Source: a bacterium
GTDB taxonomy: Bacteria > Actinomycetota > Acidimicrobiia > Acidimicrobiales > Bin134
Direction: 5' to 3'
Assembly (NCBI GenBank): GCA_026709815.1
Contig: JAPOSH010000055.1
Location: 4,363 to 68,362, forward strand
Length of the DNA stretch: 64,000 nucleotides
In this document: positions 2,015 through 62,169 of the stretch, in pieces
Position numbering within the stretch: the first letter of the stretch is position 1
Layout: each line of letters begins with the position of its first letter
Notes under the pieces: model-generated
What the model was told of the DNA's origin: nothing
The model's database searches: none
What the model saw: only the letters and a program-made list of their open reading frames with translations
Program-made: the position numbers and the translations under genes

Positions 2015-2413
2015 TCACTCCACCCGCACAGTCAGCGTCTCCTCGATGGTCACCGCGGGAAACAGGCGGCCCACAAGGGGCACCGCGGGGTCGGGCCGGT
2101 AGCGCACCGTCACCTTAAGCAGCCCGCCGGTGGTGCGGCTGCCCGCGATCTCCACCTGTAATTTGTCCCGATCCAGGCCGGTGGCGGCCCACGCGGAGGC
2201 AGAAGCCGCTTGGGTGGAAGGCTCGACCGCAGCGGCCCGTGCGGCCTCGCGGACCGAGTGGACCACCAGAATGCGGTCGCGCGCCAATAGCCCTATCTGC
2301 ACCAGTGCCAGCACCACTGCCACGATCAGCGGGAGCACCAAAGCGGTCTCCACCGCAGCCTGTCCCCGGTCGCGGCGCCGCTGTCCGTCAGCGGGACGGT
2401 TCGGGGCATCCAC
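2015..2413 (-). CDS. TadE-like pilus assembly (minor pilin-like) protein
   Basis: 132 aa. The N-terminus RGQAAVETALVLPLIVAVVLALVQIG matches the TadE N-terminal pattern, and the gene is last in Tad locus 1. Confidence 0.75.
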   Translation of the reverse strand: MDAPNRPADGQRRRDRGQAAVETALVLPLIVAVVLALVQIGLLARDRILVVHSVREAARAAAVEPSTQAASASAWAATGLDRDKLQVEIAGSRTTGGLLKVTVRYRPDPAVPLVGRLFPAVTIEETLTVRVE

Positions 2414-2427
2414 CGGCTATCGCACCA

Positions 2428-2634
2428 TTAGGTGACGAGGCCGGTGATGTGTCGGAATACGGCGTCGAGCAGATTGGCGATGCGGTTGGTCCTGGTGACC
2501 CAGGACACCAGCAGCATGGCCACCGCGGCCGCCCCCAAGAGGATGAGGGCATACTCAGCGGTGGCCTGGCCGCGGTCGGAACGCCGGTGGGACAACCAGA
2601 GATGAAGGGCGAGCAGCAATCGAAGCATGAACAT
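2428..2634 (-). CDS. Flp-type pilin (actinobacterial TAEYA class)
   Basis: I trimmed the track ORF (2428..2766) to the ATG at 2634, which has GAGG 8 nt upstream. Product: MFMLRLLLALHLWLSHRRSDRG/QATAEYALILLGAAAVAMLLV, i.e. a G/xxTAEY processing-type motif plus a hydrophobic helix. Confidence 0.7.
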   Translation of the reverse strand: MFMLRLLLALHLWLSHRRSDRGQATAEYALILLGAAAVAMLLVSWVTRTNRIANLLDAVFRHITGLVT

Positions 2635-2690
2635 GGGACAAACCTCAAAGAGGTGGAAGCGGCGGGGGAAGGCGGGGGAAGAAGAAGTGC

Positions 2691-3395
2691 TCATCGGCTC
2701 AAGACGGTCAGCGTCTCGGCGAGGACCGGGGCCAAGGTGAGGAGGATGAAAGCCGGCAGAATGCAAGTGACCAGCGGCAGCAAAAGCCGCACCGGCAGAC
2801 GACGGGCCTGCTCCTCGGCGCGGCGGCGCCGCCAGAGGCGGCTGTCGGCGGCGAGCTGCGCCAGCGGCGACTCCAGCTCGGTGCCATAGCGGTCGGCGTC
2901 GATCAACACCCTGACCAGGGGGCGCAACGGCTCGCCCACCGACTCGGGAAGCGGTTCCAGCGCATCGCCGAGGCGAATTCCGGCCTGAGTCCGGCCGACA
3001 GCCTCTGACAAACCTTCTCCCACGGGGCCAACGAGACGCTCTCCCACTGCGGCGACCGCCAGATGCACGTTGAGCCCCGAAGAGACGGCCAAACGGAGCA
3101 GGTCAACTGCTTCCGGCAGCTCATCAATGATCTCTGCCTGTTTCCGGCGATGCAGTCGGGCCCGGCGACGGTGAGGCGTGATCCACAACAGGAGTCCAGC
3201 GGCCACGCCCAATGCCGGGTGGACGATCACCGCGACAACCGCGGCCAGAGTGAACCCGGCGGCCGGCGCAGTGAAGCGCGTCGGCGGCCGCGTCCCGGGC
3301 GGCGCCGGCGACCGGACTTGTCGTGGTCGCCGACTCCACCCCCACAGCACTACCACTGCGGTCCACAACAGCCCCAGAGAGATCGGCAGGGTCAT
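2691..3395 (-). CDS. type II secretion system F-family membrane protein (TadC-like)
   Basis: Start moved to the ATG at 3393-3395, directly next to the upstream stop (3397-3399). Polytopic membrane protein of T2SSF type, in Tad gene order. Confidence 0.75.
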   Translation of the reverse strand: MTLPISLGLLWTAVVVLWGWSRRPRQVRSPAPPGTRPPTRFTAPAAGFTLAAVVAVIVHPALGVAAGLLLWITPHRRRARLHRRKQAEIIDELPEAVDLLRLAVSSGLNVHLAVAAVGERLVGPVGEGLSEAVGRTQAGIRLGDALEPLPESVGEPLRPLVRVLIDADRYGTELESPLAQLAADSRLWRRRRAEEQARRLPVRLLLPLVTCILPAFILLTLAPVLAETLTVLSR

Positions 3396-3396
3396 G

Positions 3397-4179
3397 TCAA
3401 TGGCGGGAATTGACGATGTGGCGCATCCACAGTCCGCCGATGACGTCAAGGCTGAGTCCGCAGGTGAGAATCGCCAGACCCAGGCGGGTGGTGAACAGAA
3501 AACCAGCCGAATCGTCGCTCACGCCGGCCGACATGAGCATGAACCCCAGAGGCAGCGCCGCGATCATCATTGCGGAGACCCGGGCCTGAGCGGTGAGCGA
3601 GCGCACCTCCGCCTCCAGCGCGGCCCGGTCTCGCAGCGTGGCCGCCACGCCGTCGATGGCCCGAGCCCGGGCCCCGCCCGCGGTGGCGGCAAAGGCCATG
3701 GCCGCGGCGGCCAAACCGACGCCGCGGGCCGGACAACGACGGCACCAGCGATCGAACACATCGGCGCTGCGAAACCCGCGGCCCAGCTCTACGGCCAGCG
3801 GCGCCACCTCATGGCGCAGCGGGGCCGGAGCGCTGGACGCGGCGGACACCGTGGCCGGGCCAATCTGCGACCCGGTGCGAAGCCCTCGGGCAATGGCCTC
3901 CAAAAAGCCAGGAAGCTGGGCCTCGATGGCGCGCTGGCGGCGATGGCGGTTGCACCGCAGCGCCATCAGCGCGGCCCCGATGCCCGCCGCGGCACCGACG
4001 CCCCCGCCGATCACACCGCCTTGCATCGCACCGAAGCTTGCGCCCAAAAGCGCAACCGCCCCCAACCCCCTCCAGACTTTCACCAGGGCGATATCCAGAC
4101 CGGCATCGGCGGCCCTGGCGCCAAGCCGCCCAGACGCCGCGGCGCCGACAGATCTGCTGACAGCTCTGAGGCGGTTCAT
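3397..4179 (-). CDS. type II secretion system F-family membrane protein (TadB-like)
   Basis: Start set at MNRLRAV (ATG 4177-4179), giving an ATGA overlap with the CpaF stop at 4176-4178. Membrane protein in Tad gene order. Confidence 0.75.
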   Translation of the reverse strand: MNRLRAVSRSVGAAASGRLGARAADAGLDIALVKVWRGLGAVALLGASFGAMQGGVIGGGVGAAAGIGAALMALRCNRHRRQRAIEAQLPGFLEAIARGLRTGSQIGPATVSAASSAPAPLRHEVAPLAVELGRGFRSADVFDRWCRRCPARGVGLAAAAMAFAATAGGARARAIDGVAATLRDRAALEAEVRSLTAQARVSAMMIAALPLGFMLMSAGVSDDSAGFLFTTRLGLAILTCGLSLDVIGGLWMRHIVNSRH

Positions 4180-5201
4180 GGCTGAAGCCACCGGGGGTCG
4201 GGATCGGCCGCCCCCGGCACCCGGGGCTGGACCGTCGGCAATCGGTGCAACTGAAACTCGTCGGCAATCGGGCACAACCGCGGCCGGCGGCCGTCATCGC
4301 GGCCGTCGGAGCGGTCGATCACCGCCAGTGAGGTGATGCGACGCCGACCCTGAGCGCGGCGGGAAACATGGACCACCATGTCCACCGCGGCGGTGATCTG
4401 CTGCCGCACCGCCGTCAGGGGCACGGCCCCGCCGTCGAACAGGACCATGGTCTCCAAGCGGCTGATGGCGTCGGCCGGGCTGTTGGCATGGCAGGTGGAG
4501 AGCGATCCCTCATGGCCGGTGTTCATCGCTTGGAGCATGTCCAAGGTCTCCGCCCCTCGGACTTCTCCGACGATGATCCGGTCAGGCCTCATCCGCAGGG
4601 CGTTGCGCACCAGCTCGCGGATGGTGACCGGCGCCACCCCATCGACGTCGGCCGGGCGAGCTTCGAGACGCACAACATGATCGCTGGCCAGGGACAGTTC
4701 GGCGGCGTCCTCCACCGTCACCACCCGCTCACCGGGTGAGATCGAAGCCGCCAGAGCGTTCAGCAGGGTGGTTTTGCCCGCGCCCGCGCCGCCGGACACC
4801 ACCAGATTGCAGCGAGCCGACACCGCCCAGCGCAGGGCGGCCGCCACGCCGGGAGGGGCGAACTCCTCCAAGGAAACCAGGCGGACAGAGAAGCGGCGGA
4901 TGGTCACGTAGGGCCCGTCCACCGCCACCGGCGGCACCACTGCGTTCAGGCGGGAGCCGTCGGAGAGCCGCGCGTCCACCATCGGAGAGCTGCGGTCAAT
5001 GCGTCGACCGAGCGGGGCCACGGTCTGCTCAATGAGCAACTCGATGGTCTCGCGGTCCAGAATCGTGCTGGTGGCCTCCAAACGCCCGCGCCGTTCGACC
5101 CATACCGGCCCGGGGCCGTTCACCATGATCTCCGATACCGAGGGGTCGCCCAGGAAAGGCTCGATGGCCTCTTTGCCACCCCCGCCGCTGGTCCACACCA
5201 T
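4176..5201 (-). CDS. CpaF/TadA-family pilus secretion ATPase (short actinobacterial form)
   Basis: 341 aa with Walker [17 protein letters not shown], then [43 protein letters not shown]. Confidence 0.9.
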
Positions 5202-5204
5202 CGC

Positions 5205-5894
5205 TCACACCTCCTCGGTGAGCCGACTCAGGGCCCGAACGGCGCCCTTGGGCACCTGGGTTCGCAGCATCCCGGCGTCCACCGCCCGGGCGATGCCGGG
5301 GTCGACGGCGACGGTGGCGAGCACCGGAGCGCCGATGGCCCGCTCGCAGTCGGATCGAGTCAGGGCCCGGCCGGCCTCGGCCACCAGAACCACTCCGCTG
5401 GGCCGGACCGGGAGCGATACGGCGCGGCGCAAGGCCAGATAGCACGCCCGGGTGACCAGCACCGACCGGTCAGCCTCGGCGGCGAGGCACCAGCGAAGCT
5501 CGTCGCTTGACCCGCGGCCACAGGGATGCTCATCGCCTCTCAGCACCCCCGCATCCACCACCACATCGGCGCCGGCCGCCAGCCACTCGACGAAATCCCC
5601 CGCCCGCTGAGGACTCAGCGGGCCTCGGCCTCGGGGCAGCAGCGACAGATTGGGCGTCAGCTCCAGCAGCGCTCGCTCCAGCGAGCAGGGGGCGAGATCG
5701 CTGCGAAGCCACTCGCTCAAACCGCTCGGCGCCTCGGCACTGCCGAACACTGCGGCGAGATCGCCGCACAGATCGACGAGGAGCAACGGCCGATCGGGGT
5801 CTTGGGCGGCTTGCAGGCCAGCGAGGGCGGCCATCACCGTTGTGCCCGAACCCCCCTTGGTTGACCAGCAGGTCACCAGCATGGAAACCTCCAC
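5205..5894 (-). CDS. ParA/MinD-like protein with degenerate Walker A (Ssd/TadZ-like)
   Basis: 229 aa. N-terminus CWSTKGGSGTTVMAALAG resembles the deviant Walker A KGGxGKT but lacks the GK[ST] lysine. First gene of Tad locus 1. Confidence 0.7.
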   Translation of the reverse strand: MEVSMLVTCWSTKGGSGTTVMAALAGLQAAQDPDRPLLLVDLCGDLAAVFGSAEAPSGLSEWLRSDLAPCSLERALLELTPNLSLLPRGRGPLSPQRAGDFVEWLAAGADVVVDAGVLRGDEHPCGRGSSDELRWCLAAEADRSVLVTRACYLALRRAVSLPVRPSGVVLVAEAGRALTRSDCERAIGAPVLATVAVDPGIARAVDAGMLRTQVPKGAVRALSRLTEEV

Positions 5895-51021: not shown

Positions 51022-51579
51022 GTGTCCAGCGAGGCGGAGACCGGCAACGGCGACCCCGGGCCGATTCTGATCTCCGACGATGAGCTGGCGGCCTGCATCA
51101 CCGAGCTCGGATCGCGCATCACCGCCGACTACCAAGGCCGGGCACCGCTGATGGTGGGAGTTCTCAAAGGCGCCTTCATGTTCATGGCCGATCTGGCCCG
51201 GGCCATCGAGCTGCCGGTGGAGTTCGATTTCATGGCGGTGTCTTCCTATGGCAGCTCAACCCGGACCAGCGGGGTGGTGCGGATCGTCAAAGATCTCGAC
51301 CTCGACCTCGCCGGGCGTGACGTGATCCTGGTGGAAGACATCATCGACAGCGGCCTGACCCTCAACTACCTCCGCAAAAACCTCGCCGCTCGCAACCCTG
51401 CCACCCTGGAGGTGTGCGCCCTGCTCGTTCGCAAGGGCCGCCAATACGAAGATCTCGATCTGCGCTATGTGGGCTTCGAGATCCCACCCGACTTCGTGGT
51501 CGGCTACGGCCTCGATGTTGGCGAGCGCTACCGCCAACTTCCCCACATCCGCCAATATCAGCCCAATGGAAACTCATAA
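51022..51579 (+). CDS. hpt: hypoxanthine phosphoribosyltransferase
   Basis: 185 aa. VILVEDIIDSGLTLNYL (PRPP loop), FVVGYGLD and YRQLPHI. Confidence 0.9.
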   Translation: MSSEAETGNGDPGPILISDDELAACITELGSRITADYQGRAPLMVGVLKGAFMFMADLARAIELPVEFDFMAVSSYGSSTRTSGVVRIVKDLDLDLAGRDVILVEDIIDSGLTLNYLRKNLAARNPATLEVCALLVRKGRQYEDLDLRYVGFEIPPDFVVGYGLDVGERYRQLPHIRQYQPNGNS

Positions 51580-51626
51580 TATAATTTGAAATACATCTTG
51601 ATTTGCTGATTGGGATGTGGCAGATT
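51580..51626 (+). promoter_or_regulatory. AT-rich gap with sigma-70-like hexamers upstream of Tad operon 2
   Basis: TATAATTTGAAATACATCTTGATTTGCTGATTGGGATGTGGCAGATT is by far the most AT-rich stretch nearby. TTGATT (51598-51603), 17 nt, then CAGATT (51621-51626) is a possible -35/-10 pair. Purely pattern-based. Confidence 0.25.
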
Positions 51627-51649
51627 GAGGTCATCGGCACCGCTCGACG

Positions 51650-52372
51650 GTGCCCATCCCAACCTATCGGGCACAAACCATGCCGATGGCAAGCGAGGAT
51701 CGCCGGCGCCAGCTTCCCTGGGTGGCGCTTGGGCTGACCGTCACCCTCACCGCCGCGATCATCTTCTCCCTCTGGGCATCCTCGCTCAGCAACCGGACCG
51801 CAGTGGCCGCAGCCGGGCGTGACATCCCCGCCGGATCGCCCATCGAGATCGATGATCTGCGGGCCGTTGAAGTGGCCGGCGGGCAAGGTGCGGGATTCGT
51901 ATCCATGGCTGATCTAGAGGCGGTCGTCGGACGCACCGCCCGGTCGGCCATTCCCGAGGGGGCGATCCTTCACCCCGGGTTGCTGTCAACCAACTCGCCG
52001 ATCGAGATGGGCATGGCGGTGGTCGGCGCCGTTCTCCATCCCGGTGAATACCCGATTGTGGGCCTCAGCTCCGGCCAGAGGGTCGGTGTGGTTATCGGCG
52101 TCGGCGGATACGGGTTCGACCCGCGGGATTCCGCCAGCTGGGACGCAACCTCGAACACGTCGGCCCGGTCCCCCAAAGCCACGGTCGCTGAAGTGAGCGA
52201 GTTGTCGGATGCAAGCCGGGGGGCGCTCTTCGTGTCGCTCTTGGCCTCCGCAGACGAAGCCGTGCTCATTGGCAAAGCCGCCGCAGCAGACGAGTTGCGG
52301 CTGATCCTGCTGCCTGGAGAACCTCACCGGGCCAACAGAGCGCCTGAGGCAGTGGCTAGAGCAGGCCAATGA
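51650..52372 (+). CDS. SAF-domain protein (CpaB/RcpC-like pilus assembly protein)
   Basis: N-terminal TM (LPWVALGLTVTLTAAIIFSLW), then a SAF-like segment (AAAGRDIPAGSPIEIDDLRAVEV...ARSAIPEGAILHPGLL). The start is ambiguous (GTG 51650, ATG 51680 or ATG 51686). Confidence 0.65.
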   Translation: MPIPTYRAQTMPMASEDRRRQLPWVALGLTVTLTAAIIFSLWASSLSNRTAVAAAGRDIPAGSPIEIDDLRAVEVAGGQGAGFVSMADLEAVVGRTARSAIPEGAILHPGLLSTNSPIEMGMAVVGAVLHPGEYPIVGLSSGQRVGVVIGVGGYGFDPRDSASWDATSNTSARSPKATVAEVSELSDASRGALFVSLLASADEAVLIGKAAAADELRLILLPGEPHRANRAPEAVARAGQ

Positions 52373-53115
52373 GCATCATCGCCGTGGGGAGTGTGAAGGC
52401 CAGTCCTGGAGTCACCACTTTGTCGGTGGGGCTGGCAATGTCATGGGCCCCGGTCGCCGGGCGAGGCGCGGTCCTGATCGAAGCGGACGCAGACGGCGGT
52501 GTTCTAGCGGCGCGTTTCGGGCTAGCCCCAGCACCCTCGCTGATCGAACTCTCTGCAACGGCCCGACACGAGCTGACCACCGACCGCATCCAAACCAGCT
52601 GCCAGCTGCTGGCGGGCACATTGCCCACCCTCGTTGCCCCTGGGTGCGGCGAGACCACTACTGCGGTGCTCACCCCGCTGGCCCGACGGTTGGGCGAGGG
52701 GCTCGGGCACCTCGGCGAAATCGATGCCGTGGTGGACGTCGGACGCGTGCGGGTTGGCTCCCCCGCGGGCGATCTGGTCAAACGCTGCGACTTGCTGCTG
52801 CTCGTCGCCCGCCCCCGGTTTGACCAACTCGTCCCCCTGGTCCATCAGGCTCGCCGGGTGGTCGCCCAAAACATTCCAACGGCGCTGGTTTGCGTCGGCG
52901 ACCGGCCTTATCCCCCGACGGAGATGGCCAAGGCATCCCAACTCAACCTCTTGGGCGTGATCGCTCATGAGCCCAAGATGGCTCAGACCTTTGAGCGCGG
53001 CCTGTCAGGCGACCAGCGCCATCGCCGGTTGCTGCTGTGGAGAACCCTGGCTGAGCTGGTTCGCCGAATTCAATTCCGCTTGCCCGCCGGCGCCGGCGGA
53101 CGGGAGGCGGCGTGA
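52369..53115 (+). CDS. ParA/MinD-fold protein with degenerate P-loop (TadZ/Ssd-like)
   Basis: 248 aa. IIAVGSVKASPGVTTLSVGLA occupies the place of KGGxGKT, so both lysines and the glycine pair are lost. EADADGG and later VVDVGRV keep the ParA layout. ATGA overlap with the upstream gene. Confidence 0.6.
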   Translation: MSIIAVGSVKASPGVTTLSVGLAMSWAPVAGRGAVLIEADADGGVLAARFGLAPAPSLIELSATARHELTTDRIQTSCQLLAGTLPTLVAPGCGETTTAVLTPLARRLGEGLGHLGEIDAVVDVGRVRVGSPAGDLVKRCDLLLLVARPRFDQLVPLVHQARRVVAQNIPTALVCVGDRPYPPTEMAKASQLNLLGVIAHEPKMAQTFERGLSGDQRHRRLLLWRTLAELVRRIQFRLPAGAGGREAA

Positions 53116-54392
53116 TGGCTTGTCCGGTGGTGAACCGAGTGCTGAATATGGTCACCCAAAGACTCGAGCAGGCCGAGACCGGCCAACCCGGGAGCCGACT
53201 CGAACAGAAGGCCTTAGCAGGGCAATTCCTCCTCGAGGCTCTCGATGTCATAGCCACCGAAAGAACCAGAGCGTTTCTCCCTCCGATAGACAGCGACGAA
53301 GAGCTGCGAATCACCGACGAGGTATTGGCCATCTTGTTCGGATTGGGGCCGCTAGAGCGATTGCTAGCCGACGAGTCCGTTGAGAACATAAACATGAACG
53401 GCTGTGACACGGTTTGGGTTCACCATGCTGATGGCACCAAACGCAAAGTCGATCCGCTCGTTGAATCAGATGATGAGTTGATCGCCCTCATACGCAAAGC
53501 AGCTGCTCATTTGGGTCGCAACGAACGGCGTTTTGACATCGCCAATCCGTTCCTAGATCTGCGACTACTGGATGGATCTCGCCTCAACGCAATCATGGAA
53601 GTATCCGAACGACCAGCAGTCTCCATCCGCCGCCATCGGCATCAGCGGGTCACCTTGGACAACCTCCACGATCTCGGCACCATAGACGGTTGTCTCCGTG
53701 GTTTTTTAGAGGCAGTGGTAAAAGCTCGAATGAGCATCATCGTATGCGGAGGGACGAACGCCGGAAAAACAACCCTCCTGCGGGCGCTTCTGAATGCTTG
53801 TGACCCGAACGAGCGGCTGATTACAATTGAAGATCGGTTAGAGCTATACCTGACTGCTGACAAACCGCGGCACCACGATGTAATCGAACTAGAAACTCGC
53901 ACCGCCAACATTGAGGGAACCGGCGAGATAACCATGCAGCAGCTGGTGCGAAACGCTCTGGCTATGTCACCGGACCGACTCATTGTAGGAGAAGTGCGAG
54001 GCGCTGAAGTCGTGGACATGCTCGCGGCGCTGTCAACCGGAAATGACGGATCGATGTGTACCATTCATGCCAACTCCTCCCAAGCAGCGTTCAGCAAGAT
54101 CGCCACTTACGCCTTGCGATCAACAGAGCGCATCCCTATTGAAGCCATCAACCGCATGATCGCGGAGAGTATCAACTTCGTAACCCACATAGTCAAAGAC
54201 CATCTGGGCCACCGCCGTGTGGTCTCAGTGCGAGAAGTTACGGGAAACCGGGCTGGAGAAGTGAGCAGTGTCGAAGTGTTCGCCGCCGAGAGATCACCTA
54301 AAAACTCTGGATTGCAACCCTGCACTCGAGATCGGTTGATCAATGTGGGATTCGACCCCGCGTCTCCAATGATGAAAGATGACGTAAAATGA
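53112..54392 (+). CDS. CpaF/TadA-family secretion ATPase (long form)
   Basis: 426 aa. VENINMNGCDTVWVHH, Walker [64 protein letters not shown] overlap with the upstream stop. Confidence 0.9.
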   Translation: MMACPVVNRVLNMVTQRLEQAETGQPGSRLEQKALAGQFLLEALDVIATERTRAFLPPIDSDEELRITDEVLAILFGLGPLERLLADESVENINMNGCDTVWVHHADGTKRKVDPLVESDDELIALIRKAAAHLGRNERRFDIANPFLDLRLLDGSRLNAIMEVSERPAVSIRRHRHQRVTLDNLHDLGTIDGCLRGFLEAVVKARMSIIVCGGTNAGKTTLLRALLNACDPNERLITIEDRLELYLTADKPRHHDVIELETRTANIEGTGEITMQQLVRNALAMSPDRLIVGEVRGAEVVDMLAALSTGNDGSMCTIHANSSQAAFSKIATYALRSTERIPIEAINRMIAESINFVTHIVKDHLGHRRVVSVREVTGNRAGEVSSVEVFAAERSPKNSGLQPCTRDRLINVGFDPASPMMKDDVK

Positions 54393-55261
54393 CTATGTTG
54401 GTGGGAGCGCTGCTCGGTACCGCAATGGGCTGCGGTGCCTTTGGTGCCCTCATAGGCTGGCGCGGTGTACCGCAGAGATCGGAAGTCCGCTCGCTAGGAA
54501 CCCGAACGCAACGACAACAACACGCCATTGCACCAGTGCTTCGCCCGATTGCAGCAATTGCCAGCGCCGCGGTCGCAATAGGGGCAACTGGGTGGCCCGT
54601 TGCCGGGTTCATTGCGGGCATAGCCGGATTCGCGATGCCGACGGCATTCAAAGCCAAGATGGACCGCAACCGAGAAATAGATCGCATGACGGCTCTGGCT
54701 ACCTGGATAGAAATGGTGCGAGATACCGCCAGCGCGACATCAGGATTGATTGAGGCGCTGAAAACAACAGCGGTGTCGGCGCCAACTGTCGTGCGCGTTC
54801 CTGTACGACAGCTTGCTGCCCGAGCAGAACGGGAATCCCTGCCAAAGGCATTAGCAAAGTTCGCCGAGGAGATGGACCATGCAGTTGCTGACTCCATTGT
54901 GGCAACTCTTGGGCTTGCAGCCGCTAATCAGATCGGCTCATTACAAGAACATTTGGCTGAAATTGCCGAGAGCACTCGCCAAGAGGTTTCGATGCGCCTG
55001 CGAATAGAAACCTCCCGAGCTCGTCAATTCACTTCTGCCCGTTTCATCGCAAGCATTGTGGCAATATTCTCCGCGGGAATGGTATTATTTAGCAGACCAT
55101 ACTTGTCACCATTTGATACCCTATTGGGGCAGGTTATTCTTGCAATTATCGGCGGTCTTTTTCTCGGATCGGGAATTGCTCTCGTAAGAATGAGTCGTTT
55201 CAACAGTCCGCCTCGTATTCTCAATCTAACCGGCACTCCGATCACCATCGATGAACGATAA
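54389..55261 (+). CDS. type II secretion system F-family membrane protein (TadB-like)
   Basis: 290 aa with N- and C-terminal TM blocks flanking a cytoplasmic helical domain. ATGA overlap with the ATPase gene, in Tad gene order. Confidence 0.7.
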   Translation: MTMLVGALLGTAMGCGAFGALIGWRGVPQRSEVRSLGTRTQRQQHAIAPVLRPIAAIASAAVAIGATGWPVAGFIAGIAGFAMPTAFKAKMDRNREIDRMTALATWIEMVRDTASATSGLIEALKTTAVSAPTVVRVPVRQLAARAERESLPKALAKFAEEMDHAVADSIVATLGLAAANQIGSLQEHLAEIAESTRQEVSMRLRIETSRARQFTSARFIASIVAIFSAGMVLFSRPYLSPFDTLLGQVILAIIGGLFLGSGIALVRMSRFNSPPRILNLTGTPITIDER

Positions 55262-55263
55262 CA

Positions 55264-56142
55264 ATGATCATTGGCCTCGCTCTTGGAACAGTCATAGGGG
55301 TCGGACTCGCTGTTGCTTTCTGGGGATTCTTTCCCCCGCGAAAGCCATTGAACATCCGACTCAATGAACTCGAACAGTTTGATGACAGCCATAATTCAAA
55401 AAGCATACTACGCCATCGTCTTGGCTCAGTAGCTGCAAAGCTCTCCTGGCATGGAGGGTCGCGCCGTCACCGAGTAGAACGCGACCTGAGGATTGTAGGT
55501 CAAAGCGCTGAAGAGATGGCCGTGACCAAGCTGGTTATGTTGCTGTTAGGCGTAGGATTGCCTATTGGAGTGTGGATCATCTCATGGCTTGGTCATGTAT
55601 GGATCTCCCCCACACTCGTGGCAACAGCATCTCTCTTAACAGGAGGATTACTTTTTGTTGTGCCCGATTTATCATTGCGCGAAAGAGCTCGAAATCGACA
55701 CCGTGAACTGCTTCAGCAGATTAGTGTATACTTGGATTTAGTGAGCCTCCATCTAGCGGGAGGTGCAGGATTAGATCGAGCGCTAGAAGAGTCAGCTGCA
55801 CAGGGAATGGCATGGGGTTTTGTAGAATTCAAACGAGTACTTGCACAAGCAAAGTTGACCAATGAGTCTCCATGGACTGCATTTGAAAAACTAGGACAAG
55901 AGCTTGGCTCTCCTGAACTTGAAGAACTGGGCTCATGGCTCTTTCTAGCCGGATACTCTGGATCGCGAGTGCGATCCTCTCTGCAAATCAAAGCTCGAGG
56001 ATTGCGAGAGCGAGCTCTGCACGAGGCTGAGACTCGAGCTCAACAAGCTACGGAACGCATGTCGCTGCCAGTGGTGCTCATGTTCTCAGGCTTTCTCGGA
56101 CTGATCGGCTATCCAGCCTTGGCTGCGCTTACTAGCGCATGA
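55264..56142 (+). CDS. type II secretion system F-family membrane protein (TadC-like)
   Basis: 292 aa with the same architecture (LPVVLMFSGFLGLIGYPALA at the C-terminus). Starts 2 nt after the TadB-like stop. Confidence 0.7.
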   Translation: MIIGLALGTVIGVGLAVAFWGFFPPRKPLNIRLNELEQFDDSHNSKSILRHRLGSVAAKLSWHGGSRRHRVERDLRIVGQSAEEMAVTKLVMLLLGVGLPIGVWIISWLGHVWISPTLVATASLLTGGLLFVVPDLSLRERARNRHRELLQQISVYLDLVSLHLAGGAGLDRALEESAAQGMAWGFVEFKRVLAQAKLTNESPWTAFEKLGQELGSPELEELGSWLFLAGYSGSRVRSSLQIKARGLRERALHEAETRAQQATERMSLPVVLMFSGFLGLIGYPALAALTSA

Positions 56143-56185
56143 GTAAGACCCCGCTTACCCCTTCTCAACATATAAGGAGACAGAA

Positions 56186-56386
56186 ATGAAAACAGGAATC
56201 AAGCTCTACTTATTGGTATCCACAGCGAAAAACGCGCTCGAAAAACGAATTCGCGCGGCTTGGAAATGTGAGCAGGGTGATGTGACGTCAACGGTGATCA
56301 TGATTGCTGTCCTCGTTGCCGCCGCAGTGGCAGCCGGCGTGGTCATCACTAATTACATATCTGGCCAAACCAGCAAGATCAGCTGA
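56186..56386 (+). CDS. pilin-like small protein (atypical Flp-class prepilin)
   Basis: 66 aa: MKTGIKLYLLVSTAKNALEKRIRAAWKCEQG/DVTSTVIMIAVLVAAAVAAGVVITNYISGQTSKIS. AAGGAGA lies 8 nt before the ATG. The gene occupies the flp position, but the usual xxxEY after the Gly is absent. Confidence 0.5.
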   Translation: MKTGIKLYLLVSTAKNALEKRIRAAWKCEQGDVTSTVIMIAVLVAAAVAAGVVITNYISGQTSKIS

Positions 56387-56403
56387 GCGAGCCTGATCAA
56401 AGC

Positions 56404-56781
56404 ATGAAACGCGAGCGTGGAGAAGTGACCACCACCGTCTTGGCCGTTCCCATTGCCATGTTCCTGATCTTTATCACTATCCAAGCTGCCTTAGTGTTTC
56501 ACGCCCGATCCGTGGTTGATGCTGCAGCTCAAAATGGTGCTCTAGCGGGCCAAAGTGAAATGGGAACCGAAGCCGCAGTGCATTCCGCCGTCTGGTCAAT
56601 AATAGGACCAAGCGAAAAAAATCTGCTATCGGACATGGAAATCGCCATTGAAACGAATCCAAGCCGCTTGTCAGTTACGGTGCATGCCACCGTCAAGTCG
56701 CTGATCCCTGGATTTGCTCCGAAAATCGCCTCTACTGCTGCCGGTCCTCGAGAGGTCTTCATCTCACGGAGCCGACGATGA
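56404..56781 (+). CDS. TadE-like protein
   Basis: 125 aa. ERGEVTTTVLAVPIAMFLIFITIQAALVF follows the TadE N-terminal pattern. Confidence 0.65.
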   Translation: MKRERGEVTTTVLAVPIAMFLIFITIQAALVFHARSVVDAAAQNGALAGQSEMGTEAAVHSAVWSIIGPSEKNLLSDMEIAIETNPSRLSVTVHATVKSLIPGFAPKIASTAAGPREVFISRSRR

Positions 56782-57233
56782 ACGACCAAACCCAGCCGTA
56801 CCGGCTAGTCGGTGAAACAGCAGAGCGTGGCAGCAGCATGGTCGAACTAACCCTCTTCACCCCGATTATGGTCGCTCTCCTGTTCTTTGTGATCGCGGCA
56901 GGCCGTGTGGGAACGATTCAAAGCAAATTAACTGCTGCTGCTAGCGGCGCTGCTCGCGCCGCCGCCCAGCACCAGTCAATCCCAACAGCCCAAGCAGCCG
57001 CCACGATGACGGCCGAAGCCTCCTTGCGTCATTCGGATCTAGGTTGTGCGAACGGGCCGAAAGTGTACTTCCAAGAGTTGAACCTGAGCCCTGGCGGCAA
57101 AGTCATGCTGCGAATCTCATGCGCCGTGCGACTATCGGATCTAGCCTTGCCCGGATTGCCCGGCAATTTGGAGGTGTCCGCGGCTTCGGTGTCAGTGGTG
57201 GACCGCTATCGAAGCGAAAGCGCTTCGCCATGA
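56778..57233 (+). CDS. TadE-like protein
   Basis: 151 aa. ERGSSMVELTLFTPIMVALLFFVIAAG. ATGA overlap with the upstream gene. Confidence 0.65.
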   Translation: MNDQTQPYRLVGETAERGSSMVELTLFTPIMVALLFFVIAAGRVGTIQSKLTAAASGAARAAAQHQSIPTAQAAATMTAEASLRHSDLGCANGPKVYFQELNLSPGGKVMLRISCAVRLSDLALPGLPGNLEVSAASVSVVDRYRSESASP

Positions 57234-57691
57234 CCAGCGTCATCGCACAAGAACGTTTCTGCAATGGCAAGACCACAAGAAACAGCCAGTGCGGCCAAGT
57301 CACCGTGGTGTTCGTAATCCTGGCCCCAGTCTTGATCATGCTCGGAGGACTGACATACGACGGCGCCCAACTTCTGAACGCCAGACGAGAGGCATTCACA
57401 TTGGCCGCCGAAGCAGCCAGAGCCGGGGCTCAGGCCATCTCTGTCGAAACTGTCTATCGGGACACAAACAGTATGAACGTGGATTTAGCGCGAGCTCGAA
57501 TCGCCACTTCAGAATTTCTCGGCCCGCAGGCTGACTGGTCCCTTTCCGTGACAAACGACACGGTCACAACCACTGTTTGGCACCGCCAGCCTCTTCAATT
57601 CTTGTCATTGTTCGGAATCGATTCGCGCCGAGTGGCCGGCACCGCCACCGCTCGCGCGGTCAGAGGAATACAGACCGGAGACGATCTATGA
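57230..57691 (+). CDS. TadG-like (Tad N-terminal domain) pilus assembly protein
   Basis: Internal ATG at 57230 of track ORF 57044..57691, forming ATGA with the upstream stop. GQVTVVFVILAPVLIMLGGLTYDGAQLLNARREAFTLAAEAARAGA resembles the TadG-type N-terminus. Confidence 0.55.
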   Translation: MTSVIAQERFCNGKTTRNSQCGQVTVVFVILAPVLIMLGGLTYDGAQLLNARREAFTLAAEAARAGAQAISVETVYRDTNSMNVDLARARIATSEFLGPQADWSLSVTNDTVTTTVWHRQPLQFLSLFGIDSRRVAGTATARAVRGIQTGDDL

Positions 57692-60600
57692 AGCCGAACG
57701 AAGAGCTGCGTACCGAAATCCTCCACGGATTGACCGCGGCCGGAGCGCTGTGCGGACTGCTGATGGGGGTGCCGCTTTTGCTGATCTTCGGTGTCGGTTG
57801 GCCACTACCCGCTGGAATGCCATCAGGAGCAGAAGTGCTCGCCGCCTTCAAGACCGGAACGATTTCTCCCTCCATGATCTTGAAACCTATCTCAGTGGTG
57901 GTGTGGCTCCTCTGGTTGCAGATGACATCTGGGGTGGGAGTCGAGCTTTGGGCACACCTGAACGGTCGAGTAGCCCCCCGAGTCTCTGTCATTCCCCTGT
58001 TCATGCAGCGCTTGTCAGCCCGACTCATGGGCACGATCCTCCTCGTCGCTCTCTCAGTCCAACAGCCCGCAGCAGCGCTGGACGATAACCAAGAACTTCT
58101 TTCCCCGCCCACGATGGAATTAGGCAGCGGTCAGTCACAGACCGTTGAATCCTCCGTCGAAAGCTCTCTCACAAACCCCGCTTCAAGAATCAACGATGTC
58201 ATGGCGCAAGATTTTCTTGATCCTGTTCCTCTTCTTCACACTGTGGAGCGGCGCGACAGCCTTCGAGCGCTAGCGGCGCGGTATTTGGGAGACCCAAACC
58301 GATGGACTGAAGTGTTCGTCCTCAACCAGGGACAAATCCAAGAGGACGGGGAATCGCTGACCGATCCAGCACGGCTTCGGCCCGGATGGAAACTGATCAT
58401 GCCCACCGATGCCCAGCTTCCGACTGCCGGGGCATCTGCTTTTGATGAGATGGCAAATAGCGCCGACGCGCCAGTCCCGGAAACAGAAGATCTAGCTGCC
58501 CACCAAGACTCTGTCAACGGATCCGAACATTTCACAGTCACTGTGCAAGAGGGGGATACTTTATGGGATCTGGCGGAACATCATCTCAAAGATCCCGAAA
58601 GGTGGGTCGAGATCCTCGACCACAACCAGGACGTTATCCAAGATCCCGACATGATCTTGCCGGGATGGCAGCTCCAAGTGCCAGCCCAGGACAGCAAACC
58701 CAGCATAGTTCAGCTACCAATCCAACCATGGCCTGAACCAGTCGACTCTGGTGTCTTGAGCCGAAACGTCCGAGACGCATCAGACGAAGGCCAACCCCTC
58801 CGCCGCGTCGAACCCCGCCAAATTGTCGCCCCCGTTGCGGCGTTCACAACCGCCAAGCCCACGGTGGTGGCTAACATCGCAGCACCCACCGCCGAAGCTC
58901 GCCCCGAAAGTCAGACAACGCCCAGCAAACAAACAATGCTGGCGATAGGAGGGCTCGGGGTGTTCGTCAGCAGCCTCAGCTGGGTGCTTGTCCGACTGCG
59001 GAAAACCCAGCGGCGGCGCTTGCCGAGCGGTCGAATGCCCGTCGCCCTTTCCCATGACGCTGCACACTTAGACCAGCAATTGCAGGCGGTCGCCGATTCC
59101 GACAACGCCCTCTTCTTGGACGCCGCTTTGAGAGTCATGTCCTCTCGAGTGGGCGGCAATACACCACCCGAGATCATCGGCGTGACCCATGACACCGAAA
59201 GCGCATCTGTTCATCTCAGACACCCGGCGGATGCACCCCCTGGATTTCATCCCAGCAATAACAGCATGACCTGGACTCTGCGAAGGGGTGCTGGGCTGGA
59301 GGCGCTACTGGCTGAGGCTGATGACGTGCCCGCTCCGTTGCCGGCATTGGCCGCAGCAGGAACAAGTGATGGCCGCGAATGCCTGTTGAACCTCGAGCAC
59401 ATGGTCGCGCTGAGCCTGCATGGGGACCCGGCGCTCGTTGCCGATTTCTGCATTGCCATCGCCACTCAGCTGGCCAGCAGCCACCTCGCTGACGATCTGA
59501 CAGTGATCTGTGTGGGTTTCGGCCAAGAGCTGACCGTGTTTGAAAGGGTGGAACATGTGCCCGATGTCGCCGCGGCTCTCGAGCGGCTCCAGCATCACAA
59601 GCGTCAACACCAAGCCTTGCTCGGGAACCATCCCCCTCTGGTCGCCAGCAGGATTGGCACTAGCGGCGACTATTCACAGCCGATCGTGGTGCTGGCCCCC
59701 GACAGGCTGGCCGAAGAAGAGGCTACTCAAGTTCTCGGCGCTTGCGTTTCGCCGGTCTGTGTCGTGGCCCACGGACTCCAAGGTGCCGCCTGGTCGGGGC
59801 ACTTCGACGGCGACAACCTTCTGCTGGAGCCGATCGGCCTGCGGCTGAAGGCCCACTGTCTGTCGGGTGCCGCTTCTGCCGCCATCGCCGAATTAGCGGA
59901 AAACACCGCGGGCGCAGAGCAGCTTTCACCGCGGTGGACAGGGCGCCAGCACAACTCCGACATTGACTTCCCATTAGGAGCGGAATACGACCACCGGGAA
60001 AATCCGGGCATTGAAGTGCGAGTGTTGGGTCCGGTGGAAGTGATCGGCGCCAAGCAGCCGTTTGCCTCCCGGCGAGCCCTCGACCTGGTGGCGTTCTTGG
60101 CTTTCCATCCCGAGGGAGCTGACCGAGATCAGATGAAAGCTCAGCTGTGGCCGCCAGACCATCCGCCATCCAATTCAACTCTCGCCAACACCATCAGCCG
60201 CGCCCGCAAAGCCTTGGGAGCAGACGACGACGGCAAGCCATATTTGCCGCGCGCGAACTCAAATGGGATATACCGACTGCACGAAGGAATTGAAACTGAT
60301 GTGGATAGGTTCAAGGCCTTGGTGGACGCCGCTCGCGACGAGCCCGGGCCGCGGGGTCAAAGTTGTCTCCGAACGGCTCTGAAACTCGTGCGGGGAACTC
60401 CGTTCACCGGCGGCGGCGGGGATATGTACCGATGGGCCGATTTCGGACTTCGCACCCAGATCGAATGCTTGGTGGACACTGCGGCCCATGAACTGGCCAG
60501 TAGATGCATCGACGCAGGCGATCTCTCCGGCGCAGCCAGCGCGGCCATGACCAGTCTTCGGCTGGTGGGGGTGTGCGAGCAGTGCTACCGATGGCGGCTT

Positions 60601-60762
60601 ATAGCCGCGGCCGACAACCCCACGGAGATGCGCAAGATCATGGCCGAGCTGGACAACTTGTTGAAACGGGAAAGTCCTCAGGGTGGCCCCGATGACCTGG
60701 TTCGCTCTAACCTGCTGGAACTCAGCCAGCAGCTGATGTCGGGCCACAAGACCTTCAACTAG
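57688..60762 (+). CDS. polytopic membrane protein with two LysM domains and a C-terminal SARP-type module (OmpR-like winged helix + BTAD)
   Basis: Start at the ATG at 57688 (ATGA with the upstream stop); 1024 aa. Three N-terminal hydrophobic helices. LysM-like repeats at 58237-58404 (HTVERRDSLRALAARYLGDPNRW...LRPGWKLIMP) and 58531-58683 (FTVTVQEGDTLWDLAEHHLKDPERW...ILPGWQLQVP). TM at 58936-58995. From 60010: IEVRVLGPVEV...SRRALDLVAFLAFHPEGADRDQMKAQLWP...YRL, followed by DVDRFKALV... helical repeats (BTAD-like). Confidence 0.8.
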   Translation: MKPNEELRTEILHGLTAAGALCGLLMGVPLLLIFGVGWPLPAGMPSGAEVLAAFKTGTISPSMILKPISVVVWLLWLQMTSGVGVELWAHLNGRVAPRVSVIPLFMQRLSARLMGTILLVALSVQQPAAALDDNQELLSPPTMELGSGQSQTVESSVESSLTNPASRINDVMAQDFLDPVPLLHTVERRDSLRALAARYLGDPNRWTEVFVLNQGQIQEDGESLTDPARLRPGWKLIMPTDAQLPTAGASAFDEMANSADAPVPETEDLAAHQDSVNGSEHFTVTVQEGDTLWDLAEHHLKDPERWVEILDHNQDVIQDPDMILPGWQLQVPAQDSKPSIVQLPIQPWPEPVDSGVLSRNVRDASDEGQPLRRVEPRQIVAPVAAFTTAKPTVVANIAAPTAEARPESQTTPSKQTMLAIGGLGVFVSSLSWVLVRLRKTQRRRLPSGRMPVALSHDAAHLDQQLQAVADSDNALFLDAALRVMSSRVGGNTPPEIIGVTHDTESASVHLRHPADAPPGFHPSNNSMTWTLRRGAGLEALLAEADDVPAPLPALAAAGTSDGRECLLNLEHMVALSLHGDPALVADFCIAIATQLASSHLADDLTVICVGFGQELTVFERVEHVPDVAAALERLQHHKRQHQALLGNHPPLVASRIGTSGDYSQPIVVLAPDRLAEEEATQVLGACVSPVCVVAHGLQGAAWSGHFDGDNLLLEPIGLRLKAHCLSGAASAAIAELAENTAGAEQLSPRWTGRQHNSDIDFPLGAEYDHRENPGIEVRVLGPVEVIGAKQPFASRRALDLVAFLAFHPEGADRDQMKAQLWPPDHPPSNSTLANTISRARKALGADDDGKPYLPRANSNGIYRLHEGIETDVDRFKALVDAARDEPGPRGQSCLRTALKLVRGTPFTGGGGDMYRWADFGLRTQIECLVDTAAHELASRCIDAGDLSGAASAAMTSLRLVGVCEQCYRWRLIAAADNPTEMRKIMAELDNLLKRESPQGGPDDLVRSNLLELSQQLMSGHKTFN

Positions 60763-60800
60763 GTTCTGGGCAACTAGCTTCTGGGCAACTAGCTTCTGGG
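60756..60800. repeat. three tandem copies of a 15-bp unit CAACTAG[G/C]TTCTGGG
   Basis: Units at 60756-60770, 60771-60785 and 60786-60800. The first unit contains the TAG stop of the LysM-SARP gene. Units 2 and 3 are identical and unit 1 differs at one base. Confidence 0.9.
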
Positions 60801-60877
60801 CCCTTCAGCGTCCCTGTCAAAGAGCGACCAGCCCCCAATATCGGATATGACACATCCCGGCGATAGTCTGCACTCCT

Positions 60878-61207
60878 ATGGCTGATGCCGCTGAGCCGAA
60901 GGAAGAACCGACCGCGGCCTCAATTCTGGGGCTTTCAGAAGACTGGCCAGAGCAGGCTGCCGATGCCGTTGTGAACGCCGTGGACAAGGTCCGCGGGGTG
61001 ACCACCGGTCCAGTGGTCAGCTTCACTCGCCTATTGGCCTATCTCATCTTTGGGGTGTTTCCCCTGGTTATCGTGCTAGTGCTAGGTCTTATCGCCGCAG
61101 TGCGCGGGTTGGAGGTGGCTCTCGGCCGGGCATGGGCAGCCCACGGCATACTCGGCCTGATCTTCGTTTCGCTCGGTGCTTACGCCTGGTCAAGGCGGCC
61201 TTCATGA
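60878..61207 (+). CDS. small membrane protein upstream of trxB
   Basis: 109 aa with two predicted TM helices (LLAYLIFGVFPLVIVLVLGLIAAV; ILGLIFVSLGAYAW). The stop overlaps the trxB start (ATGA at 61204-61207). Confidence 0.5.
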   Translation: MADAAEPKEEPTAASILGLSEDWPEQAADAVVNAVDKVRGVTTGPVVSFTRLLAYLIFGVFPLVIVLVLGLIAAVRGLEVALGRAWAAHGILGLIFVSLGAYAWSRRPS

Positions 61208-62169
61208 CCGACGTTCGCCGCGTGATCATCATCGGTTCAGGGCCAGCTGGGCTGACCGCAGCCATCTATTCGGCGCGTGCCAACCTCGCCCCTTTGGTCA
61301 TTGAAGGCGAACCGTCGTCCACCAGCGACCAGCCCGGCGGGCAGCTGATGCTCACCACCGATGTGGAGAACTATCCCGGCTTCCCCGAGGGCATCATGGG
61401 CCCAGAGCTGATGCTCAATTTCCGAGAGCAGGCCCAGCGATTCGGCGCGGAGATGCTCACCGACAAAGTCACCCGGGTCGATTTGTCGGGACCGCCCCAT
61501 GGCGTTTGGGTCGGAGATCCCAATGCGCCCGAGCCCACCTATCGGACATGGGCGGTCATCGTGTCCACCGGCGCTCGGTCGCTCATGTTGGGGCTCGAAG
61601 CCGAGGAGCGGCTCATCGGTCACGGTCTCTCCACTTGCGCCACTTGTGATGGATTCTTCTTCCGCGATCAGCACATCGCCGTGGTCGGGGGCGGAGATTC
61701 TGCCATGGAGGAAGCCACTTTTTTAACTCGTTTTACCTCGAAAGTTACGGTTATACATCGAAGAGACGAGTTAAGAGCCTCGAAAATCATGCAAGAACGC
61801 GCTTTCGCCAACAGTCGCATCGAGTTCTTGTGGAACAGCGCAGTAACCGACATCCGCGGCGAGGACAAGGTCACAGGCGTTGCCGTGCAGAACACGGTCA
61901 CCGGAGAGTCTTCGGTGTTAGACGTGACCGGACTGTTCATTGCCATCGGCCACCGACCCAATACCGACCTGTTCGAAGGGCAATTGAAGCGCAAGGAGAA
62001 CGGGTACCTCATTACCGAGTCTGACTCCAGCCGAACTGAAATTGAAGGGGTGTTCGCCTGCGGAGACGTGCAAGATGACTACTACCGCCAGGCAGTGACT
62101 GCGGCTGGTTCAGGCTGCATGGCGGCCATTGACACTGAACGGTGGCTGGAGTCGGCTGGACACGGTTAA
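61204..62169 (+). CDS. trxB: thioredoxin-disulfide reductase
   Basis: MTDVRRVIIIGSGPAGLTAAIY, redox-active CATCDG, GGGDSAMEEA, and C-terminal GDVQD...YRQAVTAAGSGC. Confidence 0.9.
   Translation: MTDVRRVIIIGSGPAGLTAAIYSARANLAPLVIEGEPSSTSDQPGGQLMLTTDVENYPGFPEGIMGPELMLNFREQAQRFGAEMLTDKVTRVDLSGPPHGVWVGDPNAPEPTYRTWAVIVSTGARSLMLGLEAEERLIGHGLSTCATCDGFFFRDQHIAVVGGGDSAMEEATFLTRFTSKVTVIHRRDELRASKIMQERAFANSRIEFLWNSAVTDIRGEDKVTGVAVQNTVTGESSVLDVTGLFIAIGHRPNTDLFEGQLKRKENGYLITESDSSRTEIEGVFACGDVQDDYYRQAVTAAGSGCMAAIDTERWLESAGHG

Follow-up and report, generated by a model that had tools for sequence, protein, structure and literature searches.

A predicted Tad pilus operon of an actinobacterial ten-gene subtype at a fixed chromosomal site in sponge- and coral-associated Acidimicrobiia

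Introduction

Among the described Tad systems, one of the closest to the locus reported here is found on linear plasmids of Cutibacterium acnes, which encode a SAF/RcpC-like protein, a TadZ-like protein without a Pfam match, TadA, two TadB/C proteins, a small open reading frame (ORF), three TadE-like proteins and a protein with LysM and BTAD domains (PMC3666418, Table 2). For this locus, pilin has been found exposed on the cells and electron microscopy showed appendages, and the same plasmids also carry FtsK-like, VirB4-like and TcpC-like genes (PMC5696575). Other work done with Micrococcus luteus indicated that its tad clusters are required for transformation, and that a separate operon with SAF and TadZ genes affects competence (PMC8467076). 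Here we analyse a series of ten genes of this kind in 64 kb of contig JAPOSH010000055.1 from an Acidimicrobiales bacterium (positions 4,363 to 68,362; this whole stretch of DNA is called the window, and its first letter is position 1), where they lie between hpt and the trxB-parB genes.

The original prediction regarded these genes as a second, divergent Tad-like system with extra components and hinted that they might be an insertion. From the comparisons reported below we conclude that the block is neither novel nor recently acquired, and that it is a real operon of an already known kind. It is probably a working Tad (type IVc) pilus operon of an actinobacterial ten-gene subtype, fixed in the chromosome of a host of the Candidatus Poriferisocius group. 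Tad pili are colonisation factors and the members of this clade are uncultured symbionts of sponges and corals, and an operon kept clade-wide at the same site with a near-invariant pilin of 35 amino acids makes a concrete candidate for attachment to the host or for contact between cells.

Ten genes in one operon

All ten plus-strand ORFs proposed by the original prediction are present in series, from 51.65 to 60.76 kb of the window, and they follow a promoter-like region:

51580-51679, plus strand: promoter-like elements (TTGATT-N17-CAGATT), two inverted repeats and a C-rich 5' leader
51680-52372, plus strand: SAF-domain protein, CpaB/RcpC-like (Pfam SAF, 4e-9; one N-terminal transmembrane helix, residues 15-33)
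52369-53115, plus strand: ParA/MinD-like pseudo-ATPase, TadZ/Ssd-like (weak profile matches in the PDB; hhalign match to the Ssd-like protein of a compact Tad locus, see below)
53112-54392, plus strand: CpaF/TadA secretion ATPase (T2SSE, 6.7e-39; intact Walker A, GGTNAGKT)
54389-55261, plus strand: TadB-like platform protein (T2SSF, 0.0056, below cut-off; several predicted transmembrane segments)
55264-56142, plus strand: TadC-like platform protein (T2SSF, 3.3e-9)
56186-56386, plus strand: prepilin of 66 amino acids (leader of ~31 residues, site ...EQG↓DVTSTV, mature part of 35)
56404-56781, plus strand: TadE-like minor pilin (TadE, 1.5e-6; ERG↓EVTTTV)
56778-57233, plus strand: TadE-like minor pilin (TadE, 2.4e-8; ERG↓SSMVEL)
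57230-57691, plus strand: TadG-like minor pilin (PF13400 Tad, 1e-8; QCG↓QVTVVF)
57688-60762, plus strand: LysM/FtsK-like/SARP membrane protein of 1024 amino acids (LysM, 5.8e-10; family profile, AlphaFold2 (AF2) model, Foldseek)

Six overlaps of 4 nt could be read directly (ATGA at 52369, GTGA at 53112, and ATGA at 54389, 56778, 57230 and 57688), and the remaining intergenic gaps measure 2, 43 and 17 nt. The ten genes form one translationally coupled Tad-type operon. Both orthologues and gene callers place the start of the SAF gene at the ATG at 51680 instead of the GTG of the longest ORF at 51650, and for CpaF, which has 426 amino acids as the longest ORF, gene callers take the next start codon. 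Searches with hidden Markov models (HMMs) supported the assignments to SAF, T2SSE, T2SSF (TadC), TadE (twice), Tad/TadG and LysM. The TadB-like protein reached only the value given above, but it is 35% identical and collinear to a Streptomyces T2SSF gene; Flp_Fap and BTAD/Trans_reg_C were not reached by the window proteins alone, and the ParA-like protein and the pilin gave zero Pfam matches. The SAF protein matched the CpaB model TIGR03177 with 5.5e-7, under its cut-off. Altogether, the operon encodes a TadA/CpaF ATPase with a Walker A motif, two platform proteins and minor pilins of the TadE and TadG types, as expected of a Tad system.

The same block and its flanks recur in at least four independent metagenome assemblies with 99.8-100% identity, so the block is not an assembly artefact; a chimera at the GC break near 53.1 kb was considered and is ruled out by these assemblies. 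Variation at the strain level amounts to at most 17 differences in 18.7 kb, which is too low to judge diversifying selection.

A widespread actinobacterial subtype

A collinear block of ten genes is found on the chromosome of Streptomyces fungicidicus, with 26-48% amino-acid identity, and the same gene order occurs in Amycolatopsis and Rhodococcus as well as on plasmid pREL1 of Rhodococcus erythropolis and on a Brachybacterium kimchii plasmid, the latter with conjugation genes. Searches of plasmids by tblastn with the LysM protein retrieved 204 of them, 145 from Streptomyces, while the equivalent search with CpaF was too unspecific to be used. Because the same order is found elsewhere, the "extra components" of the original prediction are normal parts of a described and widespread actinobacterial Tad subtype, and not an unusual or inserted system. 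Moreover, a metagenome contig of Acidimicrobiales bears the block in an integrative and conjugative element (ICE), where it stands between an integrase and a series of Peptidase_A24, TpcC-, VirB4-, TrbL-, VanY- and VirD4-like genes. In the CpaF tree the Poriferisocius clade is sister to this ICE-borne copy, which fits an old mobile-element origin, and the subtype probably entered the ancestor of the lineage on a conjugative element and was then domesticated.

Conservation at a single chromosomal site

The names attached to homologues of the last gene are Acidimicrobiia and Candidatus Poriferisocius. When genomes were scanned with an alignment of the LysM protein, 35 species-level loci were obtained, all of them from the sponge- and coral-associated Ca. 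Poriferisocius group and related Acidimicrobiia. In about 29 of these loci the ten-gene series is complete and its order unchanged, with tilS-hpt on one side and the genes for a 109-aa protein, trxB, trxA, an amidase and parB on the other, so a recent acquisition is not supported. The block shows 46-83% amino-acid identity to the window, compared with 75-97% for the flanks. The main groupings are shared by neighbour-joining trees made for each of the two flanks, for the ParA-like protein, for the LysM protein and for a concatenate of the Tad proteins. The ratio of non-synonymous to synonymous substitution rates (dN/dS) in pairwise comparisons of the ten genes is 0.05-0.51, mostly 0.1-0.3, and 0.0-0.2 in the flanks; between the window, whose ten ORFs are all intact, and locus L011 it is 0.09-0.35. 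Judged by these trees and rates, the block is an old one that has passed down vertically under purifying selection. With regard to what the original prediction had asked of the relatives, the block is indeed present at this site in them, and it belongs to a described subtype, but its composition departs from that of the host and there has been hardly any experimental work on the subtype.

An AT-rich block that arose in place

The GC content at third codon positions (GC3) falls from ~0.8 in hpt to 0.59 in CpaF, 0.50 in TadB and 0.43 in TadC, and comes back up to 0.66-0.69, the 40 other genes of the window having a mean of 0.81 with a standard deviation of 0.05; the trough covers 53100-59000. 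The hpt-SAF gap (GC 0.49), which had been described as the most AT-rich of the neighbourhood, is indeed among the two most AT-rich gaps between 44 and 64 kb, but the TadC-pilin gap is lower (0.47). In the relatives the block usually lies 0.15-0.2 below the upstream flank. The depth of the trough differs even between sister lineages: locus L030 has none and is host-like, whereas in L029 (the same as L008, 4000-13100) GC3 is 0.17-0.31 against 0.74-0.82. The Streptomyces copy is host-like as well (0.88-0.97).

A GC3 of 0.43-0.66 in the block, the AT-rich gap at its start and the existence of relatives on plasmids and in an ICE could all speak for a genomic island acquired recently between hpt and trxB from a donor of lower GC. 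We consider this explanation extremely improbable, and for a recent transfer it is already refuted. About 29 species have an orthologous block at this site, with gene trees that match those of the flanks and reject an import of AT-rich genes from a low-GC relative. Searches by tblastn with proteins of the ICE and of the plasmids found no homologue of integrase, relaxase, VirB4, VirD4, TcpC or other components of type IV secretion systems in the window or in the 35 loci, in agreement with the original prediction for the integrase and the relaxase of the window. Finally, the unequal depth of the trough in L029 and L030 speaks against an island, as do the changes on single branches described next.

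Third-position changes were polarised and counted per site and per branch. On the window branch, from CpaF to TadE, GC-to-AT changes reach 0.24-0.33 in the block against 0.08-0.10 in the upstream flank, and on the L029 branch 0.4-0.7 against 0.12-0.19. The trend is reversed on the L011 branch, where CpaF and TadC show an excess of AT-to-GC changes and the flank shows no such reversal. C>T and G>A transitions make up the GC-to-AT excess, and changes between C and G are not raised, a pattern that fits a local loss of a GC-favouring bias at silent sites and not a general rise in the mutation rate. That the trough formed in place follows from the agreement between gene trees and flank trees, and the changes on single branches confirm it. 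The low GC of the block, which the original prediction had proposed to check, is therefore real and unlike that of the host, yet it bears no mark of horizontal transfer; as read from the polarised changes, it is a later, lineage-specific drift at silent sites and not a trace of the mobile origin. Low recombination, low expression or selection for silencing are possible causes. A low GC that does not indicate horizontal transfer calls for caution in finding islands by composition.

The promoter and the leader

The 100-nt spacer between hpt and the SAF gene is nearly invariant over 24 aligned species and contains, in this order, TGAAATAC, a -35-like CTTG(C/A)TT, 17 nt and a -10-like CAGATT. The C-rich leader of the SAF gene shows no Shine-Dalgarno sequence. 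Two inverted repeats, with some compensatory and some G-U-type changes, follow a pattern of pairing: over both helices, 85% of the alignment cells make a standard pair and 6 double-sided pair changes were counted against 1.7 in shuffles. The support from RNAalifold for these leader hairpins is weak, with a small covariation term, and Rfam gave no match in 51300-61300; a riboswitch or other RNA element is consequently not claimed, and we treat the spacer as a putative conserved promoter and leader.

The pilin and the minor pilins

In 28 species, the pilin joins a hypervariable leader (~31 amino acids) to a nearly invariant mature part. The mature pilin of 35 amino acids follows in the clade the pattern (E/D)(R/Q)G↓DVTSTVII(M)IAVLVAAAVAAGVVIT(N/T)(F/Y)ISGQTSKIS, and it stays nearly invariant even in the most AT-rich genome. 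The window pilin (...EQG↓DVTSTVIMIA) keeps the glycine and the hydrophobic-helix layout of a class III signal, and its gene is preceded by an AAGGAG Shine-Dalgarno sequence. The minor-pilin sites of the clade are ERG↓EVTTTV, ERG↓SSVVGL and QRG↓QVTVVF, the last one being QRG in most relatives and QCG in the window. The pilin and the three minor pilins share a cleavage-type motif, (E/Q)-(R/Q)-G.

The LysM/FtsK-like/SARP protein

According to hydropathy and models, the last protein of the operon is composed of three transmembrane helices, two LysM domains, a fourth transmembrane helix followed by RKTQRRR, and a cytoplasmic half. Its parts are located as follows:

~58228-58407 and ~58531-58683, plus strand: LysM domains (Pfam LysM, 5.8e-10)
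~58936-59016, plus strand: fourth transmembrane helix (hydropathy)
~59173-59916, plus strand: FtsK/TcpA/EccC-like domain with degenerate Walker A (family profile and Foldseek)
~60013-60759, plus strand: SARP module, winged helix and BTAD (family profile and Foldseek)

A profile of the family matched in the PDB the SARP regulator AfsR (6e-11), the LysM domain of TsaP (3e-10), 4nh0, a chain of the FtsK/SpoIIIE family (1.8e-8), and EccC5 (2.6e-4), together with the winged helices of CadC and ToxR. The AF2 model used comprises residues 468-1024, was built with 66 diverse sequences and has a mean predicted local distance difference test (pLDDT) of 89.5; a full-length model of the 1024 residues from 30 close sequences (pLDDT 51.6) was excluded from the fold search. 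With the former, Foldseek retrieved AfsR (2.7e-8), EmbR (1.5e-6), TcpA (2e-6), FtsK (2.5e-5) and EccC (1.4e-4). Both profile and model thus reveal an OmpR-type winged helix followed by a helical BTAD domain, as in SARP proteins, and a RecA-like motor-domain fold in the central domain, although the window protein alone stays below the Pfam cut-offs for SARP (Trans_reg_C, 16.5 bits against 26.2). The label "LysM-SARP" given in the original prediction was borne out in its two halves, but it had missed the FtsK-like domain between them. No clear repeat of the SARP direct-repeat type was seen in the conserved promoter region.

A close-up view of the central domain shows that the Walker A motif GxxGxGK[ST] is missing, the corresponding sequence being LSLHGDPALVADF in the window and VSLSGREADRAAVF in Streptomyces, and GK[ST] occurs in no family member examined. 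The FtsK-like domain is therefore a pseudo-ATPase that cannot pump DNA, and it is most like the non-catalytic DUF domain of EccC. This bears on whether the operon still serves DNA transfer, as a leftover mating-contact pilus whose FtsK-like/SARP protein would handle DNA. In favour of such a role, the ICE that bears the closest outgroup copy also has an integrase and VirB4-, TrbL- and VirD4-like genes, FtsK-, VirB4- and TcpC-like genes accompany the locus on the Brachybacterium and C. acnes plasmids (PMC5696575), and the last protein combines a TcpA/FtsK fold with a predicted DNA-binding module. The role seems nonetheless quite improbable, given that the Walker A motif is missing across the family and that the block is kept under purifying selection although the transfer genes searched for, from relaxase to integrase, were not found in the window or the 35 loci.

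The ParA-like protein and the reduced loci

The ParA-like protein lacks the KGGxxGK[ST] P-loop of ParA and MinD. Its P-loop reads K-A-S-P-G-V-T-T, and the lysine of GK[ST] is replaced in all 20 aligned orthologues, including that of Streptomyces. A search with the single protein gave 1,566 representative relatives (clusters), 678 of them at E <= 1e-10; SPGxTT is present in each of the 150 best ones and GK[ST] in none. The P-loop of this ParA-like protein, which the original prediction had called "degenerate", is no defect of the window copy but a conserved hallmark of the whole family, and the protein, by this motif, belongs to a large family without a Pfam model and marked by SPGxTT. Profile matches in the PDB were weak (BceF, FleN and Soj), and the solved TadZ was not matched. 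Some members of the family have C-terminal extensions of 200-500 amino acids, one of which (in P0184) has an FHA domain; no fusion to SARP or LysM was found among these long proteins.

Three relatives have lost most of the operon:

L028, 9155-13012: without SAF and CpaF-to-TadG; promoter, leader, first SAF codons, ParA-like gene and intact LysM gene kept
L033, 9000-12979: without SAF and CpaF-to-TadG; promoter, leader, first SAF codons, ParA-like gene and intact LysM gene kept
L044, 9042-13564: without SAF and CpaF-to-TadG; promoter and intact ParA-like gene kept; LysM gene broken

The three loci stand on separate branches of the flank trees and of the gene trees, so the pilus genes were lost independently three times. 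The coupling has been rebuilt in L033, where the stop of the ParA-like gene and the start of the LysM gene share 4 nt. A fusion in L044 has placed the -10 element 8 nt before the ParA-like ATG, and a transposase of the rve type breaks the LysM gene there. In pairs with the reduced loci, dN/dS of the ParA-like and LysM genes is 0.16-0.22, similar to other pairs. Deletions on both flanks that spare the ParA-like gene each time argue that it is under selection, as is the LysM gene in two of the three loci.

It could then be asked whether the operon is decaying, the pilus being no longer made and only the ParA-like and LysM/SARP genes mattering, as a regulatory or envelope module independent of the pilus. 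The three losses with a retained promoter and ParA-like gene would agree with it, and so would the intact LysM gene in two of them, the rebuilt coupling, the unchanged dN/dS of the two retained genes, the AT drift at silent sites and the fact that no Peptidase_A24 gene was found nearby. Against it, the ten ORFs of the window are intact, with the low dN/dS to L011 given above, the mature pilin hardly changes where the genome is most AT-rich, and in L044 the LysM gene has itself been broken. We regard decay as improbable.

A broader and tentative reading joins these observations: the SPGxTT ParA-like protein and the LysM/FtsK-like/SARP protein could together make up a module of their own, which would be anchored in the peptidoglycan and attached to the membrane, is predicted to bind DNA and would have a job beyond pilus building; the Tad subtype would be the domesticated contact apparatus of a conjugative element, and the GC-to-AT drift would mark a region cut off from a force that keeps GC. 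This combination is possible, though we would not favour it. Such a module may follow from the three lineages in which deletions flank the ParA-like gene, from the promoter that was kept each time and from the one coupling that was rebuilt. If the region were cut off in this way, it could be, for instance, a recombination cold spot without biased gene conversion or a stretch silenced by a nucleoid protein.

A proposed pilus machine and its function

In the reading that we consider probable, that of a working Tad pilus operon, a prepilin peptidase encoded elsewhere in the genome would cut after the conserved glycine, and CpaF, acting on the TadB/TadC platform, would polymerise the 35-aa pilin onto a tip primed by the two TadE-like proteins and the TadG-like one. 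The SAF protein might be a collar on the wall side, and the ParA-like pseudo-ATPase might position or dock the machine, as TadZ does. By a similar analogy, the LysM protein could anchor the machine in the peptidoglycan and might also work as a membrane-tethered regulator, through its cytoplasmic FtsK-like scaffold and its SARP DNA-binding module. Such a pilus most likely serves adhesion, or contact between cells, within the host matrix.

The main alternative to adhesion or contact is a DNA-uptake (competence) pilus, for which there is the M. luteus precedent (PMC8467076) and with which the very short and highly conserved mature pilin would be compatible. No genes of the comEA/comEC type were seen near the block, and sequence alone gives no distinction between uptake and adhesion; we consider uptake unlikely.

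Several observations weigh against a functional pilus operon. The pilin has neither E5 nor Y6, that is, the Flp G/XXXXEY prepilin motif is missing, and it matches neither the Flp nor the DUF4244 HMM. A Peptidase_A24 HMM built from 22 sequences gave a best E of 0.77 in the 64-kb window and in the 35 related 23-kb loci, which confirms the original prediction that the window has no prepilin peptidase, whereas several other copies of the subtype do have a Peptidase_A24 gene beside or near the block, for example adjoining the LysM gene. A strong AT drift at silent sites could be a sign of low or no expression. Because three relatives lost the pilus genes, the pilus must be dispensable in some settings, and the roles given above to the SAF, ParA-like and LysM proteins are drawn by analogy.

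The compact Tad locus and other regions of the window

The window also contains the compact first Tad locus announced in the original prediction, which is real:

2015-5894, minus strand: compact actinobacterial Tad locus with TadE, DUF4244 pilin, two T2SSF genes, CpaF of 341 amino acids and Ssd-like gene

The second system is distinct from it, as was proposed, and its SAF, TadG-like and LysM/SARP proteins are missing from the compact locus. The two CpaF paralogues are 40% identical, and both stay below the cut-off of TIGR03819 (373 bits), with 266 bits for the ATPase of the second operon and 296 for that of the compact locus. The pilin of the second operon has zero match to DUF4244, and the pairing of a compact-type ATPase and pilin is not found there. 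On the other side, hhalign aligned the ParA-like protein with the Ssd-like protein of the compact locus with a probability of 94%. A STAS-domain protein of the anti-sigma-factor-antagonist type and a HATPase_c_2 protein of the anti-sigma-factor/kinase type adjoin the compact locus (1178-2010, minus strand), and they may be a partner-switching pair.

Upstream of the operon, between 30067 and 46000, there are genes for a sulfatase, a flavin monooxygenase and a cytochrome P450, and others for ABC-transporter and solute-binding proteins, several in number and one of them a fused OpuAC-Bmp protein; this content fits the lifestyle of a sponge symbiont. Downstream of the operon, only a gap of 115 nt is left at 60763-60877, where the window has lost a pair formed by a SigM-like extracytoplasmic function (ECF) sigma factor and a zinc-finger anti-sigma factor. 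In most relatives this pair stands between the LysM gene and the 109-aa/trxB genes (L012, 14591-16100; L008, 13197-14601). It was considered as a Tad-specific sigma/anti-sigma pair, a candidate that we reject; it is SigM-like and matches the sigM-trxB-trxC-cwlM-parB arrangement of Mycobacterium tuberculosis, with sigM beside trxB. Insertion-sequence genes, IS481-like or for a DDE_3 transposase, occur in the origin-proximal region of some relatives (L008, 19514-20955; L033, 6955-8064), and the region upstream of the block is rearranged in L033, with gyrB nearby instead of tilS-hpt.

Comparison with known systems

The tad locus of Aggregatibacter and the cpa locus of Caulobacter share with the window operon TadA/CpaF, TadB, TadC, pilins of the TadE/F/G type, a SAF protein (CpaB/RcpC) and a very short pilin, and their TadZ/CpaE may correspond to its ParA-like protein. 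The window operon differs from them in the missing secretin, TadD, Flp motif and TadV/CpaA, and it adds the LysM/FtsK-like/SARP protein. A missing secretin and TadD are expected for a bacterium with a single membrane. The compact locus, which is of the M. tuberculosis Rv3654c-Rv3660c type, shares a CpaF-family ATPase, TadE, two proteins of the T2SSF family and a ParA-like protein whose P-loop is degenerate; it lacks SAF, TadG-like and LysM proteins, and has a DUF4244 pilin and a shorter ATPase.

As for the last protein, its 250 C-terminal residues share the fold of the SARP regulators AfsR and EmbR, with the difference that the module, which is predicted to bind DNA, stands here behind four transmembrane helices, two LysM domains and the FtsK-like domain. 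Its winged helix is similar to those of the membrane-tethered activators ToxR and CadC. Its central domain has the motor-domain fold of FtsK, of TcpA (the coupling protein of pCW3) and of EccC/EssC, but it lacks their Walker A.

The C. acnes plasmids pIMPLE-HL096PA1, p15.1.R1 and p09-9 have the same gene order, as compared from the published gene table. Their locus is plasmid-borne and stands beside conjugation genes, whereas the window block is chromosomal and fixed in its clade, and the searches of the window and the 35 loci found no transfer genes. The Streptomyces pilin and TadE retain the classical E5 (G↓ASAVEW and G↓MTAIEF), in contrast with the G↓DVTSTV of the window pilin. A pseudo-FtsK domain, a ParA-like family without a Pfam model and a pilin without the Flp motif are structural additions to a widespread and barely studied Tad subtype, and the copies of Streptomyces, Amycolatopsis, Rhodococcus, pREL1, Brachybacterium and the ICE all share with the window the SPGxTT ParA-like protein and the protein that joins LysM, a degenerate FtsK-like domain and BTAD.

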